Positions 20,909 through 37,551 of a stretch of 53,068 nucleotides of DNA are shown here, in pieces; within the stretch, counting starts at the first letter, position 1; every line of letters begins with the position of its first letter. Made by a program: the position numbers and the translations under genes. The stretch spans positions 1-53,068 of the forward strand of contig JBGGMJ010000192.1 of assembly GCA_041288095.1 (NCBI GenBank), written 5' to 3'. Origin of the DNA: Myxococcota bacterium (GTDB taxonomy: Bacteria; Myxococcota; XYA12-FULL-58-9; JALHOP01). A model generated the notes under the pieces. That model worked only from the letters and a program-made list of their open reading frames with translations, was not told where the DNA came from and made no database searches.

Positions 20909-21976
20909 TCAGCTCCGGTGCAGCACGTAGATGGCTTCGCCCGGGCCGCTGATGGCGCGCGCGAAGGCTCGGAAGACGCGGTGATCGATGACCTGACAAC
21001 CGCGACTACCCACGGGATAGAGCGTGCCTTGGTGCATGATGGCGTCAGCGTGGAAGGTGATGGCGCTCGTCGACACCAGTCGCATTTCGCCGCGATCGAG
21101 CGCGCCGCTACGGTTGGTGTCGCGGTTTGCCCGCGAGGCGTTCACGACGAAGCTCCCCAGCTCGCCGCCGATCTGGCGGCTCACGCGGTAGAACGGCTCG
21201 GCGCCGGGCCGGATGTCGGGGATGTACGGCGCGTCGACGCGGCGACCCGTGTCTTTGCGCAGGATACCTTCCGTCCACGTGGGTTGCGATGTCGAGCGGA
21301 AGGTCCCCGCGAGGCGGGGCTCACCGCCGTTGTTGGTGCGGAAGACGTACGTCGTGCCCTTGAGCTCGCCGAAGTTGCGCGTCGTGTTGTTGCGATCGAT
21401 CTGGACGATGTAGACCTGATTGGGCTGCAACTGTCCGGGCACACGCTCACGCAGCAACTGGAGCGCCTGCTCCGTCGTTCCGCCATAGCGGCCACGACTC
21501 GGATCACCCTGGCTGATGCGAAATTCGCTGGTGTCGGCTTCCGCGACTGGACCTCGTGTCGCGACTGCCCGCGGTGTCGGCGAGCCGGGTGCGACCGCGC
21601 GTGGCGTTGTCGCTCGCTCGCCGGCGTCGGCGCGTCGCTGGCTGCGCGGTGCCGCTGGAGCGGTGCGAGGCTCTTCGGTGCGTGGCTGGAAGAAGCGACT
21701 CCAGAAACTACCGGCATCCGAGGCGTGCTCCGGCGAGCGATAGCGCTGCGCCTGTTGCAAGGCCGCCGCGTTCGGCCGGTAACCGTAGCGACGCAGAGCG
21801 GCGATGGTGTCGGGGCCGAGTCCGGCCTCGTTGATGTTGTTGCGCCGCTGGAAGATACGGAGGTTGACCTCGGGCGGGTCAGCGAGCTCTCGCCCCCAAA
21901 AGCGCTCCAGGGCGCCATGCAAAGCAGCCGCGGTTTCGGGCCGGTAGACGCGAGATGTGGGAGCGGGGGACGCCAT
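20909..21976 (-). CDS. Orphan protein with C-terminal L,D-transpeptidase-like (YkuD-type) His/Cys motif
   Basis: FH-X14-SRGCQ near the C-terminus; DTNRSGALD loop; Pro/Ala/Thr-rich N-half; AGGAG RBS; no signal peptide. Confidence 0.6.
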   Translation of the reverse strand: MASPAPTSRVYRPETAAALHGALERFWGRELADPPEVNLRIFQRRNNINEAGLGPDTIAALRRYGYRPNAAALQQAQRYRSPEHASDAGSFWSRFFQPRTEEPRTAPAAPRSQRRADAGERATTPRAVAPGSPTPRAVATRGPVAEADTSEFRISQGDPSRGRYGGTTEQALQLLRERVPGQLQPNQVYIVQIDRNNTTRNFGELKGTTYVFRTNNGGEPRLAGTFRSTSQPTWTEGILRKDTGRRVDAPYIPDIRPGAEPFYRVSRQIGGELGSFVVNASRANRDTNRSGALDRGEMRLVSTSAITFHADAIMHQGTLYPVGSRGCQVIDHRVFRAFARAISGPGEAIYVLHRS

Positions 21977-22005: not shown

Positions 22006-22032
22006 TTATCGGCTGCCAGGCCGGCAGGTTGC
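22006..22032 (-). promoter_or_regulatory. sigma28 (FliA/WhiG)-like promoter GCAAC-N14-GCCGATAA
   Basis: Perfect GCCGATAA -10; same motif and spacing as the two copies at 34.0 kb. Confidence 0.65.
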
Positions 22033-31093: not shown

Positions 31094-31780
31094 TCAAACC
31101 GTGGAACCTCTACCTGCACGCATGCGCAGGAGCGCCTCGGCGACGTGCAGGTCGTCGGCGTCGTCGATATCCAGGCTGCGCTGCTTCGGCATCGCTACGC
31201 CGATGCTCTTGCCCGCCACCACGAAGCGCTCGTGCTCGCGCAGCCACCGCGGGCTCGCGACATAGACGGCGCCGTTCAGCCGCCAGCAGGTCGGTTCTTC
31301 CTGTCGCCGGCCCGGTCGGCGCGGGCCCAATGCGACCAGCTTTTCGCCCCGCATGCCGAAGCGCAACGACGCCGGCGTATCGACGCACACGGTGGCCACG
31401 CCGACGCGGTGTCGCTTCCAGGCTCCGACCGCGTTGCGAATGTCTCGCGGCAGAGTGAGCGGTGTCGTCGCGGACAGGAGCACGACGAGGTCGCAATGGC
31501 TGCCGGCCAGCGCGTGCAGGACCACGTCAACGAGTCGGGCACGGTCACCGGCGAGCTCCTCGGGACGCTCGATGATGCTCGCTCCCGCCTTCCTGGCGAG
31601 CTTCGCGTACGCGGCGCTGTCGGTGCTGACGGCGATGCTCCAATGTTCGCCGCGGCGGACACTGGAGCGAGCGAGATGAATGGCCTGGCTGAGCAAGGCC
31701 TCGCCACCGACGACACGCACGTTCTTGTGGCGCAGCCCCTTCGAGCCGGAGCGTGCCGGGATGAGCGCCAGGACGTTCAC
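31094..31780 (-). CDS. Acylneuraminate (nonulosonate) cytidylyltransferase family protein
   Basis: LIPARSGSKGL..KN, VSTDS, RPEELAGD, NGAVY, SLDIDDADD; GTG overlaps the uvrC stop. Confidence 0.88.
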   Translation of the reverse strand: MNVLALIPARSGSKGLRHKNVRVVGGEALLSQAIHLARSSVRRGEHWSIAVSTDSAAYAKLARKAGASIIERPEELAGDRARLVDVVLHALAGSHCDLVVLLSATTPLTLPRDIRNAVGAWKRHRVGVATVCVDTPASLRFGMRGEKLVALGPRRPGRRQEEPTCWRLNGAVYVASPRWLREHERFVVAGKSIGVAMPKQRSLDIDDADDLHVAEALLRMRAGRGSTV

Positions 31781-33747
31781 GATGCGTCCTTGGCGGCCTT
31801 CTCGGCGAGGCCATCGAGTACTTTGCGGGCGGTGGCGGTGCCGACCACCTTGGCGACATCTTCGAAGCTCGCGGCGCGCAGACGGGTGATGGAGCCGAAG
31901 GTTCGCAGGAGTAACTTGCGACGTTTCGGGCCGACGCCGGGAATATTGTCGAGCGCGGTTCGCGTGCTCGCTTTGCCGCGGAGCTGGCGATGGAAGGTGA
32001 TGGCGAAGCGGTGGGCTTCGTCGCGAGCCCGCGTGAGCAAGAAGAGCTCGGCGGAGTTCTGGCGCAACACCACGGCGTCCTTGCGCCCGGAGACGAAGAC
32101 GCGCTCCGGTGAGCGCTGGATTTCGGTGGGCACGTCGGAGCTGTCGTACGTAGCCTGACTCATCTCGGTGACGGTCTCGGCGCCGGCGAGTGAGTCGCTC
32201 GCGGCTTCCAGCACCGCAAGGTCGCTCATGTCGACGGATGTGACGCTATCGCGGACATCATCGGTCTGGACACGGGACTTCGCGAGCGAAATGAGATCGA
32301 CGTCGTGCACCGCGTGGTCGTCGAGCGCCGCGCGCGCGGCCGCGAGCTGCCCCTTGCCGCCGTCGATGACGATGAGGTCGGGCAGGTCTTGCTCCTCGAG
32401 CCCGCGGCGGGCTCGCCGATTGATGACCTCGTACATCGACTGGAAATCGTCCTGACCAGCGGTCGTGCGGATCTTGTAGTGGCGGTAGAGGTCCTTGTTG
32501 GGCATGCCATGGTCGAAGCGCACCAAGCTGGCGACGATCTGACCACCTTGGAAGTGCGAGATGTCGAAGCACTCGATCCGCTCTGGCGGACGGCGCAGAT
32601 GCAAGGCCCGTTGCAGCCTCTCCACCGACGTCTTGGCGGCCCCGGCTTCGCGCATCTTGTCGACGAAAGCTTGATGAGCGTTCTTGCCGGCGAGCTCGAT
32701 GAGGCGCGCTTTCTCGCCGCGTTGTGGCGTGAGGACAGCCACCCTACGGCCGCGCTTTTCGGAGAGCAGGTCGGCGAGCGCCGCGTCCCACTCGAACTCG
32801 GGGGGGAAAAGAATCTCGTCCGGTACATCGCTCTCGGCGGTGTAAAAGCGGCCGGCGAAGTCGCTCAAGATCTCCGACGTCTCCTGCTCGAGGCCGTCGA
32901 ACGAATAGCGCTGCGCGTCGATGAGCCGGCCATCGCGTGTGCGCATGACGTGGATCTCGACGTTGGGACCCTCACGGTAGATGCCGACGACGTCGCGGTT
33001 CACGAAGTCGCTGGTCACCATCTTCTGGCGCTCGAGCGAGCGTTGCACGGCGAGCATCTGATCGCGGATCAACGCCGCGGCTTCGAAGGCCTCCTCGGTG
33101 GCGCGGGCGCGCATGCGCGTCTCGAGCGTGGTCACGAGCTCGGACTCCTTGCCCTCGAGAAAGGCGATGACACTCTCGACGTTCTGCGCGTACTCGCCTT
33201 GCGAGAGGTCGAACACGCAGGGCGCGGGGCAACGCTTGATCTGGTACTGCAAGCAGGGACGCACGCGGTTCGCGAGCACCTGGTCGTTGCAGGTGCGCAG
33301 CTGAAAATGCCGGTTCACCAGGCGGACGACTTCGCGCAGCGAATGCGCCGAGTGGTACGGTCCGAAATAGCGTGCGCCGTCCTTGCCGAAGCGGCGCACC
33401 ACCTGGAGGCGGGGATACGGCTCGCGGGTGTCGAGGCGAATGCACAGGAAGCGCTTGTCGTCCTTCAGATGGATGTTGAAGCGCGGCGTGTGCTCCTTGA
33501 TGAGCTCGCTCTCGACGAGCATCGCCTCCTTCTCGTTGTTGGTGAGCACGACATCGAGGTCGGCGAGCATCCGGTCGAGGAGCGAAACGAAAGGGCGGGT
33601 ATCAGATCCCGAGAAGTAGCTGCGTACGCGATCGCGGAGGCTCTTGGCCTTGCCGATGTAGAAGACGACGCCCTTCGCGTCGCGCATGATGTAGACGCCG
33701 GGACTGTGCGGCAGCGCGGCAATCTTGTCGGCGATGTGCGAGCGCAT
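31777..33747 (-). CDS. uvrC: Excinuclease ABC subunit C
   Basis: PGVY...YIGKAKSLRDRVRSYF (GIY-YIG), IECFDISH, PDLIVIDGGKGQL, RDEAHRFA, C-terminal HhH. Confidence 0.97.
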   Translation of the reverse strand: MRSHIADKIAALPHSPGVYIMRDAKGVVFYIGKAKSLRDRVRSYFSGSDTRPFVSLLDRMLADLDVVLTNNEKEAMLVESELIKEHTPRFNIHLKDDKRFLCIRLDTREPYPRLQVVRRFGKDGARYFGPYHSAHSLREVVRLVNRHFQLRTCNDQVLANRVRPCLQYQIKRCPAPCVFDLSQGEYAQNVESVIAFLEGKESELVTTLETRMRARATEEAFEAAALIRDQMLAVQRSLERQKMVTSDFVNRDVVGIYREGPNVEIHVMRTRDGRLIDAQRYSFDGLEQETSEILSDFAGRFYTAESDVPDEILFPPEFEWDAALADLLSEKRGRRVAVLTPQRGEKARLIELAGKNAHQAFVDKMREAGAAKTSVERLQRALHLRRPPERIECFDISHFQGGQIVASLVRFDHGMPNKDLYRHYKIRTTAGQDDFQSMYEVINRRARRGLEEQDLPDLIVIDGGKGQLAAARAALDDHAVHDVDLISLAKSRVQTDDVRDSVTSVDMSDLAVLEAASDSLAGAETVTEMSQATYDSSDVPTEIQRSPERVFVSGRKDAVVLRQNSAELFLLTRARDEAHRFAITFHRQLRGKASTRTALDNIPGVGPKRRKLLLRTFGSITRLRAASFEDVAKVVGTATARKVLDGLAEKAAKDAS

Positions 33748-33807: not shown

Positions 33808-33851
33808 CAATAATGGCGCCCGAGATGGGGAGCTACCCCATCTCGGACACC
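33808..33851 (-). terminator. Terminator-like hairpin GGUGUCCGAGAUGGGG-UAGCU-CCCCAUCUCGGGCGCC-AUUAUU
   Basis: 11 perfect bp plus 5 bp with two G-U pairs on the minus strand only; the tail is AU-rich, not poly-U. Confidence 0.55.
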
Positions 33852-33866
33852 TGCGAGAATTCAGCT

Positions 33867-33940
33867 CGGGCAAGCTGGATCTCAATACGGGCTAACTTCT
33901 CGGCCGCCCGGGCAGGCGGCCCTCTAACAACGGGCTAACT
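33867..33940. repeat. Four phased CGGGCW repeats (period 21, 21, 22 bp)
   Basis: CGGGC at 33867, 33888, 33909 and 33931. Copies 1 and 3 are CGGGCA hairpin loops; copies 2 and 4 lie in the identical ACGGGCTAACT. Confidence 0.8.
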
Positions 33941-34003
33941 GGCGCAGCTTGGGAGCGAGAGCCAGAACGACGGTAAGGGCTGCCCCAAACATCGTTACTG
34001 AGT

Positions 34004-34030
34004 TTTTCGGCGAGCGGCTGACAAAGTTGC
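34004..34030 (-). promoter_or_regulatory. sigma28-like promoter GCAAC-N14-GCCGAAAA
   Basis: Same motif and spacing as the 22006-22032 and 34055-34081 copies. Confidence 0.6.
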
Positions 34031-34054
34031 TGAAAAACTGACGTGCCGCAGCAC

Positions 34055-34081
34055 GCAACACCGCCGTTGTCGGTCCGATAA
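34055..34081 (+). promoter_or_regulatory. sigma28-like promoter GCAAC-N14-TCCGATAA
   Basis: 53 nt upstream of ATG 34135; back-to-back with the minus-strand copy. Confidence 0.6.
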
Positions 34082-34134
34082 GGTGTCCACTTCCGTCACA
34101 CGGGCGTGGCGAAGTTTGGGAGCGAGAAAAAATT

Positions 34135-34896
34135 ATGACTTCTGTTCAACAGAAGGCTAGCAGCCTTGCTGACCGCGCTATCGCGGCCGGCGCTGAAGCC
34201 TCGGGCAAGTTGAAGGTAACTGGAACTATTGTTGCGGGCGTCACCGGTGTTGTGACTGTCCCCGCCGGCGCCGTCGTTGGTGGCGTTGGTAACGGCCTCA
34301 TCGAAGCCGGCAAGGGCGTGCGCGATGCGTATCGTCCCGGCGAGAAGGGCGCGCCGATCTTCAACCAGAACCGCACCATCCAGGCGGCGGGCATGCTCGG
34401 CGTTGCGACTGCCACTCTGGCGGGCGTTGCCGCGATCGCTGGTCTTTCGGTTCCGGGCCTCGGCCCCATCACCCTGCCGGCCGCCGGCGCTCTCGGCGTC
34501 TTCGCCGCTGGCGCGGGCTTCGTTGGCGCGGGCGTGGTCAACGGCGTTGTCGCCGGTGTCCAGGGCATGGGCGCGGGCGGACTCAAGGGCGCGAAGGCCG
34601 GCATCGGCGTGGCGAAGGCCACCGGTGCGGTCGCTCAAGAGATCACCGACGACGCGGTGAAGGTCGTCAAGCAGGTTGCCAAGGACGCGGTTCGCGCGGC
34701 CGGCATCCTCGTGCACAACGGCGCCGAGGCCACTCGTGAAGGTTACGAGGAGCTGAGCGTCAAGGAAGCCGACGGCGCGCAGATCGTTGCCGACGCCCTC
34801 AAGGCGAAGGCGAACGCGGTTGCCAACGGTGGCCCGCGCTACGACGCGAACGGCAAGAAGCTTGCGGACTTCCCCCCGGATTACAAGCAGCTGTAA
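34135..34896 (+). CDS. Gly/Ala/Val-rich glycine-zipper protein (orphan, possibly membrane-active)
   Basis: GGGAG RBS; long hydrophobic GxxxG runs; no Sec signal; own terminator. Confidence 0.8.
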   Translation: MTSVQQKASSLADRAIAAGAEASGKLKVTGTIVAGVTGVVTVPAGAVVGGVGNGLIEAGKGVRDAYRPGEKGAPIFNQNRTIQAAGMLGVATATLAGVAAIAGLSVPGLGPITLPAAGALGVFAAGAGFVGAGVVNGVVAGVQGMGAGGLKGAKAGIGVAKATGAVAQEITDDAVKVVKQVAKDAVRAAGILVHNGAEATREGYEELSVKEADGAQIVADALKAKANAVANGGPRYDANGKKLADFPPDYKQL

Positions 34897-34930
34897 AGGC
34901 TGGTCGCGATAGCGATCACATAGAATAACG

Positions 34931-34977
34931 AAGGGGCGTCGCTCGCTGTCAAAGGCGGGCGACGCCTTTACGTTTTT
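34931..34977 (+). terminator. Intrinsic terminator of the glycine-zipper gene
   Basis: GGCGTCGCTCGC...GCGGGCGACGCC stem (plus-strand G-U) followed by TTTACGTTTTT. Confidence 0.75.
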
Positions 34978-37461: not shown

Positions 37462-37551
37462 ATGGCTACTGCGAAGAAGAAGAAGGCTACTAAGAAGGCG
37501 AGCAAGAAGAAGGCGAAGAAATCTTCGCGCAAGAAGGCTAAGCGCAAGTAG
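37462..37551 (+). CDS. 29-aa Lys-rich histone-H1/protamine-like microprotein MATAKKKKATKKASKKKAKKSSRKKAKRK
   Basis: AGGAGG RBS, ATG, TAG; own promoter and terminator; below the ORF-track length cutoff. Confidence 0.85.
   Translation: MATAKKKKATKKASKKKAKKSSRKKAKRK

Follow-up and report, generated by a model that had tools for sequence, protein, structure and literature searches.

What is encoded in the 387 nucleotides (nt) that separate the start of uvrC from a divergent open reading frame (ORF) for an orphan protein of 253 amino acids (aa), and do the products of the 2 sides of this region act on each other? We have considered this question for a contig from a Myxococcota bacterium (JBGGMJ010000192.1, assembly GCA_041288095.1), all 53,068 nt of which were analysed and are referred to below as the window. 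An initial annotation, made from the letters of this DNA, had proposed that an RNA read from the minus strand is antisense to the ribosome-binding site of the 253-aa gene on the plus strand. Every element which that annotation named is present where it had been placed, and all of them recur in 3 related loci. From the evidence set out below, we put at about one in two the probability that the RNA is a translational repressor of the neighbouring gene, induced together with its target and encoded beside it. The features on which the question turns are the following.

33808-33997, minus strand: predicted structured RNA of ~190 nt, from RNAalifold and covariation; both ends are putative
34116-34127, plus strand: target core TTGGGAGCGAGA, which includes the SD sequence GGAG, 12 nt before the ATG; invariant in 4/4 genomes
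34135-34896, plus strand: ORF of the orphan 253-aa protein, from the ORF list; between uvrC and uvrB
31777-33747, minus strand: uvrC, from Pfam; same strand as the RNA and downstream of it, with a conserved start codon
35167-37182, minus strand: uvrB, from Pfam

We compared the window with 3 loci recovered by a scan of genome contigs, designated L001, L002 and L003, all of them from uncultured organisms. Their proteins are 86% (L001, from a metagenome-assembled genome labelled Bdellovibrionales), 66% (L002) and 57% (L003, labelled Myxococcota, as is L002) identical to that of the window. The order uvrC (minus), 253-aa gene (plus) and uvrB (minus, where the contig extends to uvrB) is kept in 3/3 loci, and the Pfam assignments in the window agree with the earlier placing of the locus between uvrC and uvrB. 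Two alignments of the 4 genomes are used throughout, A2 for the intergenic region and A3 for the minus-strand RNA. As a neutral yardstick we took the four-fold degenerate sites of 2 flanking genes, at which identity between genomes is 53–74%.

The observation that carries our reading is that a loop of the RNA, UCUCGCUCCCAA, is the exact complement of TTGGGAGCGAGA at the Shine-Dalgarno (SD) site of the 253-aa gene. On the RNA side this 12-nt core (33949-33960) is 100% identical in all 4 genomes, as compared to 53–74% for the four-fold sites, and the 53-nt 5' untranslated region (5'UTR) of the 253-aa gene is 89–100% identical to the window in the relatives. The 2 copies of the core belong to a longer direct repeat, 33940-33960 and 34107-34127, which matches at 19/21 positions; when the intergenic region was shuffled 1000 times with its dinucleotide composition kept, the best match obtained was 17 and 19 was never reached. 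Examined by hand in A2, the duplex of the window and of L001 contains, over 21 positions, 19 Watson-Crick pairs, 1 G-U pair and 1 mismatch, which bears out the initial count of a 19/21 match with 20/21 positions pairable (one G-U). By the same procedure the loop-to-SD duplex amounts to 13 bp in L002 and 18 bp in L003, and UUGGGAGCGAGA is always covered.

Co-folding gave intermolecular pairs involving the SD core and the 5' hairpin in 4/4 genomes, with a gain of -20 to -34 kcal/mol. When duplex energies were compared with those of 300 shuffled RNAs, the natural RNA was bettered by 0 in the window and L001, by 1 in L003 and by 13 in L002. Among 46 gene starts in the window, that of the 253-aa gene forms the best duplex with the anti-SD hairpin of the RNA (-40.2 kcal/mol, vs -31.7 kcal/mol for the next). 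Sites fully pairable with the core (pattern TTGGGRGYGRGR) number 3 in the window against 0.10 expected, and these are the RNA gene itself, the SD site and a site in a 355-aa ORF that is considered further below. The target core has a predicted unpaired probability of 0.67–0.70. By these computational measures, the RNA has a conserved, accessible seed that is predicted to pair with the leader of its target. We also observed that the distance between the 2 core copies is 167, 167, 167 and 168 bp in the 4 genomes, despite 2 bases inserted in the 5' hairpin of L002.

Is the minus-strand product a structured RNA? Its predicted parts are given here from 5' to 3'.

33966-33996, minus strand: 5'-terminal hairpin P1, from the fold; shows compensatory changes, and its U-G cells are C-A mismatches on the plus strand
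33939-33965, minus strand: anti-SD hairpin, a CUGGC/GCCAG stem with a 17-nt loop that contains UCUCGCUCCCAAGC; folds in 4/4 genomes
33931-33935, 33909-33913, 33888-33892 and 33867-33871, minus strand: four GCCCG motifs, which make up an array at 33867-33935
33815-33851, minus strand: closing 16-bp hairpin, 67 nt before the uvrC ATG; candidate terminator or attenuator

Between the anti-SD hairpin and the closing hairpin the order is a UUAGCCCGU linker, a hairpin with a UGCCCG loop, a second UUAGCCCGU linker and a second hairpin with a UGCCCG loop. For the minus strand, RNAalifold on A3 gave an energy of -62.9 kcal/mol with a covariation term of -5.25 and 52 pairs, 15 of them compensatory; the corresponding values for the plus strand were -50.1 kcal/mol, -0.75, 37 pairs and 8 compensatory. 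In the minus-strand structure 200/207 cells pair (31 as G-U), as compared to 170/207 (1 G-U) when the same columns are read as plus strand, a comparison that favours the minus strand to the extent that the structure was chosen on it. The G-U asymmetry lies in hairpins that are symmetrical as DNA. Examples in A3 are U-G pairs in the 5' hairpin (window, L002 and L003), a U and a G inserted so as to pair with each other (L002) and G-U pairing in the closing hairpin (window, L001 and L002). The proportion of cells paired, 96.6%, compares with 89.0 +/- 1.3 in shuffles. Pairs changed on both sides number 15/52, vs 5.0 +/- 1.8 in shuffled alignments (0/500 reach 15) and 0–2 in slid controls; 6 of these pairs fall in the closing hairpin and 4 in the hairpin at columns 144–159. 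With four sequences, two of them close, we regard this evidence for a minus-strand RNA structure as good but not overwhelming. RNAalifold also offered an alternative, in which the 5' arm of the anti-SD hairpin takes part in a long-range helix; CUCCCAAG is unpaired in either structure.

The ~185 nt of hairpin-rich sequence that had been pointed out on the minus strand is thus matched by a structure of ~190 nt with covariation and minus-specific G-U pairs. Its final 16-bp stem was recovered as well, with arms (33815-33830 and 33836-33851) that are 88% complementary as DNA and pair at 16/16 positions on the minus RNA, 2 of them as G-U, and the anti-SD sequence does sit inside a CUGGC...GCCAG hairpin, in the loop of 33939-33965. 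A search of Rfam (E up to 10) returned chance-level matches only, the best at 15–18 bits where the thresholds are 46–60. We found no paralogue of the RNA when its alignment was run with nhmmer against the window and the loci, and no blastn match to the intergenic region in plasmids. A conserved small ORF inside the RNA was considered and rejected on the grounds that the indels in A3 are not multiples of 3. Within the 5' hairpin (33984-33994, minus strand) we noted CGAUGUUUGGG, a 10/11 copy of the mRNA sequence CGAAGUUUGGG (34110-34120, plus strand), which is kept in the window, L001 and L002 and is degenerate in L003. This element could pair with the RNA's own anti-SD loop, holding the loop closed.

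How might the 2 transcripts be made? The initial annotation had recognized back-to-back copies of one promoter motif, and we found exact matches to GCAAC-N16-CGAWAA at both positions and at a third. The motif resembles those recognized by extracytoplasmic function (ECF) sigma factors.

34004-34030, minus strand: leftward ECF-sigma-like promoter GCAAC-N16-CGAAAA, exact match; putative start near 33997
34055-34081, plus strand: rightward ECF-sigma-like promoter GCAAC-N16-CGATAA, exact match; putative start near 34088
22006-22032, minus strand: third exact promoter copy, which precedes the 355-aa ORF

These 3 exact copies compare with 0.05 expected in the window, and at least 3 were seen in 0/100 shuffles; with one mismatch allowed the count by itself is not significant, 13/100 shuffles reaching 3. 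The motif occurs twice per locus in 3/3 related loci and is invariant in 9/9 aligned instances, and it is from the sequence that we infer the start sites. In A2 the GCAAC and CCGAAAA boxes of the leftward element are invariant in 4/4 genomes and the 16-nt spacer is variable; because invariant boxes around a variable spacer are the usual signature of a promoter, this element is likely to be one. The rightward element is 85–96% identical to its counterparts in the 3 relatives, vs 53–74% at four-fold sites. As judged from these alignments, the divergent pair of putative promoters is conserved.

For ECF-sigma promoters of M. xanthus, a common AAc at -35 and cGT at -10 are described in the part of PMC6061681 that bears on them. 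Set against a promoter with AAC at -35 and a CGT-like -10 element 16–17 nt apart, the motif in the window matches an AAC/CG frame, but its -10 element reads CGA rather than cGT, and the assignment to an ECF-type sigma factor is a presumption. A Pfam scan found no sigma factor gene among the 48 window ORFs, and a scan for sigma-70-like promoters found 0 in the window region and the 3 loci. A sigma-54 reading of GGCTGACAAAGTTGC (34016-34030, plus strand) was rejected, as A2 shows no conservation of the GG, and the spacing exceeds the required one by a single base. In addition, an 11-nt inverted repeat, AGTTTTTCGGC / GCTGAAAAACT, flanks the leftward promoter (34001-34039), and a T-rich tract lies 5' of the -35 box in the leftward and third promoters; the repeat or the tract could be an UP-like element or an operator.

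A further point of possible contact between the 2 RNAs, which is new relative to the initial annotation, is the GCCCG array and its complement in a loop of the mRNA.

34089-34115, plus strand: mRNA 5' hairpin with apical loop ACGGGC (34100-34105), from the fold

Two of the GCCCG copies lie in the UGCCCG hairpin loops and 2 in the UUAGCCCGU linkers, at intervals of 21–22 nt in the window and mostly 18–27 nt across the genomes, and four copies per RNA are accessible. Each RNA has 4–5 copies where 0.6–1.0 are expected, a count that was reached by 0 to 14/1000 shuffles, depending on the genome. The mean unpaired probability of the motif is 0.21–0.82, and that of the ACGGGC loop is 0.94–0.98. The stem beneath this loop is kept on the plus strand in L002 and L003 by a change from U-G to U-A. 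GCCCG(U) is complementary to the (A)CGGGC of the apical loop, and the complementarity extends to 8 nt in L001 and to 10 nt in L003. This arrangement suggests loop-loop docking that may help the anti-SD loop to find its site.

In the mechanism that we propose, an ECF-type bidirectional promoter pair would direct rightward transcription of the mRNA for the orphan 253-aa membrane-type protein and leftward transcription of the ~190-nt RNA on the uvrC strand. The UCUCGCUCCCAAGC loop of the RNA would base-pair with the single-stranded SD segment of the neighbouring mRNA, and the four GCCCG(U) motifs would dock on the ACGGGC apical loop of the mRNA 5' hairpin. Because the pairing site includes the SD sequence, the expected effect is repression, with pairing over the SD sequence blocking ribosome binding. 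The same sigma factor would switch on both RNAs, protein synthesis would begin only once the mRNA has outpaced the RNA, and the circuit, an incoherent feed-forward loop, would impose a threshold or delay. Some of the transcription may continue past the weak closing hairpin into uvrC. If this is correct, the locus is a compact case of a sigma factor that induces a gene and the gene's RNA repressor from one bidirectional region, with an unusual design in the combination of an anti-SD loop and a periodic loop-docking array. It would also provide a Myxococcota regulatory RNA that base-pairs with a defined target, in a lineage for which the literature that we found mainly concerns the small RNA (sRNA) Pxr, and a first functional handle on the orphan membrane protein that is found between uvrC and uvrB in every genome seen. 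The value of the finding is limited by its tiny known range, which is confined to uncultured organisms and comprises 4 genomes and a few short contigs.

Several points weigh against translational repression by a paired RNA, and we gather them here. Both the RNA and the regulation are predictions from sequence comparison, in only 4 genomes of which two are close (86% protein identity). Pairs were counted on the very alignment that had yielded the consensus structure, and the anti-SD hairpin, which folds equally well on either strand, is uninformative with regard to strand. The anti-SD core is only moderately accessible, with an unpaired probability of 0.46–0.63. Of the check proposed initially, that the pair should be conserved or covary in relatives, the first part stood, the 12-nt core being conserved in 4/4 genomes; as the pairing core never varies, there is no covariation between the partners. 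Also, the SD copy of the core would be conserved for translation anyway. The argument for pairing rests on the invariance of the upstream copy in a variable context. As for the array, a single CGGGC could well arise by chance in a GC-rich leader of 47 nt. The direction of regulation might also be the opposite one: in the portions of PMC5869019 that deal with katG, pairing of the sRNA GsrN with the katG leader is described as activating. The last 2 points concern the 3' end. The closing hairpin is followed by CAUUAUUG, a weak U-tract with 4 U in 8 nt, and a terminator scan flagged the full 16-bp stem in 0/4 genomes, finding only a 5-pair inner sub-hairpin in L003. Because of the weak U-tract and the unflagged stem, a discrete small RNA is a candidate only.

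Could the RNA instead be a long 5' leader of uvrC? According to this explanation, transcription from the leftward promoter would continue into uvrC, the hairpins would act in cis on attenuation or stability, and the 12-nt element would be unrelated to pairing. The RNA is indeed on the uvrC strand, 67 nt upstream of that gene, with 0 sigma-70-like promoters found in between, and the arrangement upstream of uvrC is kept in 3/3 loci. The closing hairpin has no canonical U-tract, and one is present in the terminator of the neighbouring gene.

34932-34969, plus strand: terminator-like hairpin with a clear U-tract, from the terminator scan; 3' of the 253-aa gene, its equivalent also flagged in L001

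Yet the 67 nt that lead from the closing hairpin to the uvrC ATG are the least conserved stretch of the putative leader (27–49% identical to the relatives). Because this stretch is unconstrained, the conserved RNA does not resemble an element that controls ribosome binding at uvrC, nor did we see any sequence complementary to the uvrC start region. A leader would also leave unexplained the invariant loop that is an exact complement of the neighbour's SD region in 4/4 genomes, as well as the periodic GCCCG motifs. We consider a purely cis-acting leader rather unlikely on this balance. Leaders that also act in trans exist, and the explanation is compatible with trans action; read-through into uvrC is plausible, with the RNA possibly serving as both a leader and a trans-acting regulator.

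The GCCCG array raises another alternative. RNAs of the CsrB/RsmZ type carry a short motif repeated in hairpin loops and linkers, and their multiple GGA motifs bind CsrA/RsmA. By analogy, the four GCCCG motifs might titrate an RNA-binding protein, the anti-SD match being secondary, and the number and arrangement of the motifs in 4/4 genomes (4–5 vs 0.6–1.0 expected, evenly spaced, loops alternating with linkers) resemble what is seen in those RNAs. The repeated motif, however, is GCCCG rather than the GGA of Csr/Rsm RNAs, the Rfam search produced no match, and no candidate binding protein is at hand. Moreover, the mRNA leader carries the complement CGGGC and not the same motif, which fits an RNA-RNA contact better. 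The presence of this complement in a hairpin loop of the target mRNA suggests kissing contacts between the RNAs rather than protein capture, and we regard a protein sponge as quite improbable.

What kind of protein would repression by the RNA control? The composition of the 253-aa product (A 20.9%, G 17.0%, V 12.6%, with 7 GxxxG motifs) and the hairpin at 34932-34969 agree with its initial description as a Gly/Ala/Val GxxxG-rich protein whose gene has its own terminator; the absence of a signal peptide was judged by eye only. Uncharged hydrophobic stretches at residues 28–56 and 81–150 are followed by a charged, helical C-terminal part. Taking a glycine zipper to be a GxxxGxxxG-type run in a hydrophobic segment, we observed that G133-G137 and G144-G148-G152-G156 are invariant in 6/6 sequences, and the protein can be classed with those that have such zippers. 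From its sequence, it is likely to be located in a membrane. The ATG at 34135 is taken as the start because the N-terminus, MTSVQQK, is invariant in 6/6 sequences. The stored gene call is for 214 aa and starts at residue 40 (GTG), and relatives of 232–253 aa share MTSVQQK; the gene caller seems to have overlooked the first 39 codons (34135-34251).

A word-indexed protein search placed the family in 6 clusters, and an exhaustive HMMER search of 1.84 billion representatives gave 6 matches, of which 4 reached E<=1e-10 and the two weakest were long repetitive proteins. There were no family matches in Pfam, NCBIfam, PADLOC or a PDB profile search, a flagellin line in NCBIfam (E 0.032) being taken as noise, and tblastn against plasmids and phages gave no match; the family is at one chromosomal position in every locus seen. 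The best score in the ESM Atlas, 0.80, is under the tool's meaningful level, and an AlphaFold2 model from 9 sequences was unusable, with a predicted local distance difference test (pLDDT) value of 31.9. The neighbours of the 253-aa gene are uvrC, uvrB, a cytidylyltransferase and an epimerase, and among these window neighbours Pfam found no export, secretion or immunity genes. The initial suggestion of a membrane-active or secreted, toxin-like protein fared poorly in the face of the missing family matches, the low pLDDT and the lack of nearby export genes: nothing that we found supports a toxic, pore-forming or secreted role. CdzC and CdzD of Caulobacter are glycine-zipper bacteriocins with Gly/Ala/Val-rich GxxxGxxxG segments. 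Unlike these or the class II bacteriocins, the protein described here has no family homology, no adjacent secretion or immunity genes and a fixed uvrC-uvrB position, and it is set apart from them by the family searches, without a direct comparison to Cdz.

These properties bear on the possibility that the locus is of the type I toxin-antitoxin kind, a glycine-zipper, membrane-damaging toxin held in check by an RNA antitoxin, as with tisB/istR-1 or dinQ/agrB. In excerpts from PMC4147584, IstR-1/tisB, OhsC/shoB, OrzO/zorO and AgrB/dinQ are each described as an sRNA gene back-to-back with a gene for a hydrophobic protein; the sRNA is complementary, imperfectly and over a short stretch, to the 5' region of its mRNA rather than antisense to it throughout, and there is a link to DNA-damage genes. 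According to the same excerpts, DNA damage induces three E. coli type I toxins, which counts in favour of the comparison. Here too, the RNA is divergent and its complementarity to the mRNA 5' region is limited (19/21 in the window, 13–21 positions in 4/4 genomes), and conserved GxxxG runs are found in long, uncharged Gly/Ala/Val segments of the protein. To this extent the analogy with tisB/IstR that was drawn initially stands. It does not extend to the size of the protein or to the site of pairing. Type I toxins are typically under 60 aa (so stated in the relevant part of PMC11264685), and SymE, at 113 aa, is called large in the excerpts from PMC4147584; the protein described here is 253 aa. 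The divergent antitoxins are represented in those excerpts as pairing further upstream, in a long 5'UTR and without overlap of the initiation site, whereas the core at 34116-34127 includes GGAG, 12 nt before the ATG, and the SD sequence would be covered. Unlike the divergent type I pairs, both partners at this locus have the same alternative-sigma motif, such that a toxin and its antitoxin would be induced from one and the same type of promoter. There is also no sequence relationship to those pairs and no homology to any known toxin, toxicity being a hypothesis only, and the locus is found at one chromosomal position with no plasmid or phage copies. We think it improbable that this is a type I system.

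A more elaborate version would combine these elements into a DNA-repair-linked growth-arrest switch, in which one stress sigma factor fires both a 253-aa glycine-zipper toxin and a multi-site RNA antidote that kisses several mRNAs, masks their ribosome sites, serves as a leader of uvrC and reaches the 355-aa ORF. A single RNA would then control both the capacity for repair and the shutdown of the membrane. We give this scheme only a slight chance. Finally, the repeats could be DNA sites for a transcription factor, with TTGGGAGCGAGA present twice and CGGGC every ~21 bp so as to flank or loop the divergent promoters; although the core spacing (167, 167, 167 and 168 bp) is about 16 helical turns, the ~21-bp CGGGC period is two helical turns and a related site lies downstream of the third promoter, this is very improbable in view of the fact that the motifs are in loops of helices kept by compensatory changes and strand-specific G-U pairs, an RNA-level constraint, that the core is not palindromic and that the core and the GCCCG array are at no fixed distance from each other across the genomes (86–141 nt).

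To which known regulators would a co-induced, base-pairing repressor be related? MicA, RybB and MicL of E. coli are sigma-E-dependent base-pairing sRNAs. By analogy, the closest mechanism appears to be that of ECF-sigma-dependent sRNAs with a conserved C-rich loop, such as GsrN of Caulobacter. As portrayed in PMC5869019, GsrN depends on sigma-T through an ECF-type promoter, and its most conserved part is a C-rich loop that pairs with a G-rich leader tract. GsrN activates katG, which is outside the sigma-T regulon in the same account; the putative target described here, in contrast, shares the promoter type of the RNA and adjoins it divergently.

Repression by the RNA might extend to a gene elsewhere in the window, which lies behind the third copy of the promoter motif.

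20912-21976, minus strand: 355-aa ORF behind the third promoter copy, for which Pfam gave no match
21888-21899, minus strand: TTGGGGGCGAGA, a possible second target inside the 355-aa ORF, ~107 nt downstream of the third promoter

TTGGGGGCGAGA can pair with the anti-SD core at 12/12 positions (one G-U), with a predicted duplex energy of -41.4 kcal/mol, and it is possible from this complementarity that the mRNA of the 355-aa ORF is a second target of the RNA. The sole homologue found, in the genome of L002, reads YWGRT where the window reads FWGRE; because of this difference the complete TTGGGGGCGAGA site cannot be conserved in the L002 homologue.

The window as a whole has a G+C content of 66%, and its genes are Myxococcota-like (PEGA-domain Ser/Thr kinases, PilZ proteins and similar). 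Our literature searches found no published description of the locus. One minor observation concerns the region upstream of uvrB, where 37462-37551 (plus strand) is a lysine-rich ORF of 29 codons (MATAKKKK...), below the length at which ORFs were listed, with GGAGG 6 nt upstream and a hairpin after the stop codon.

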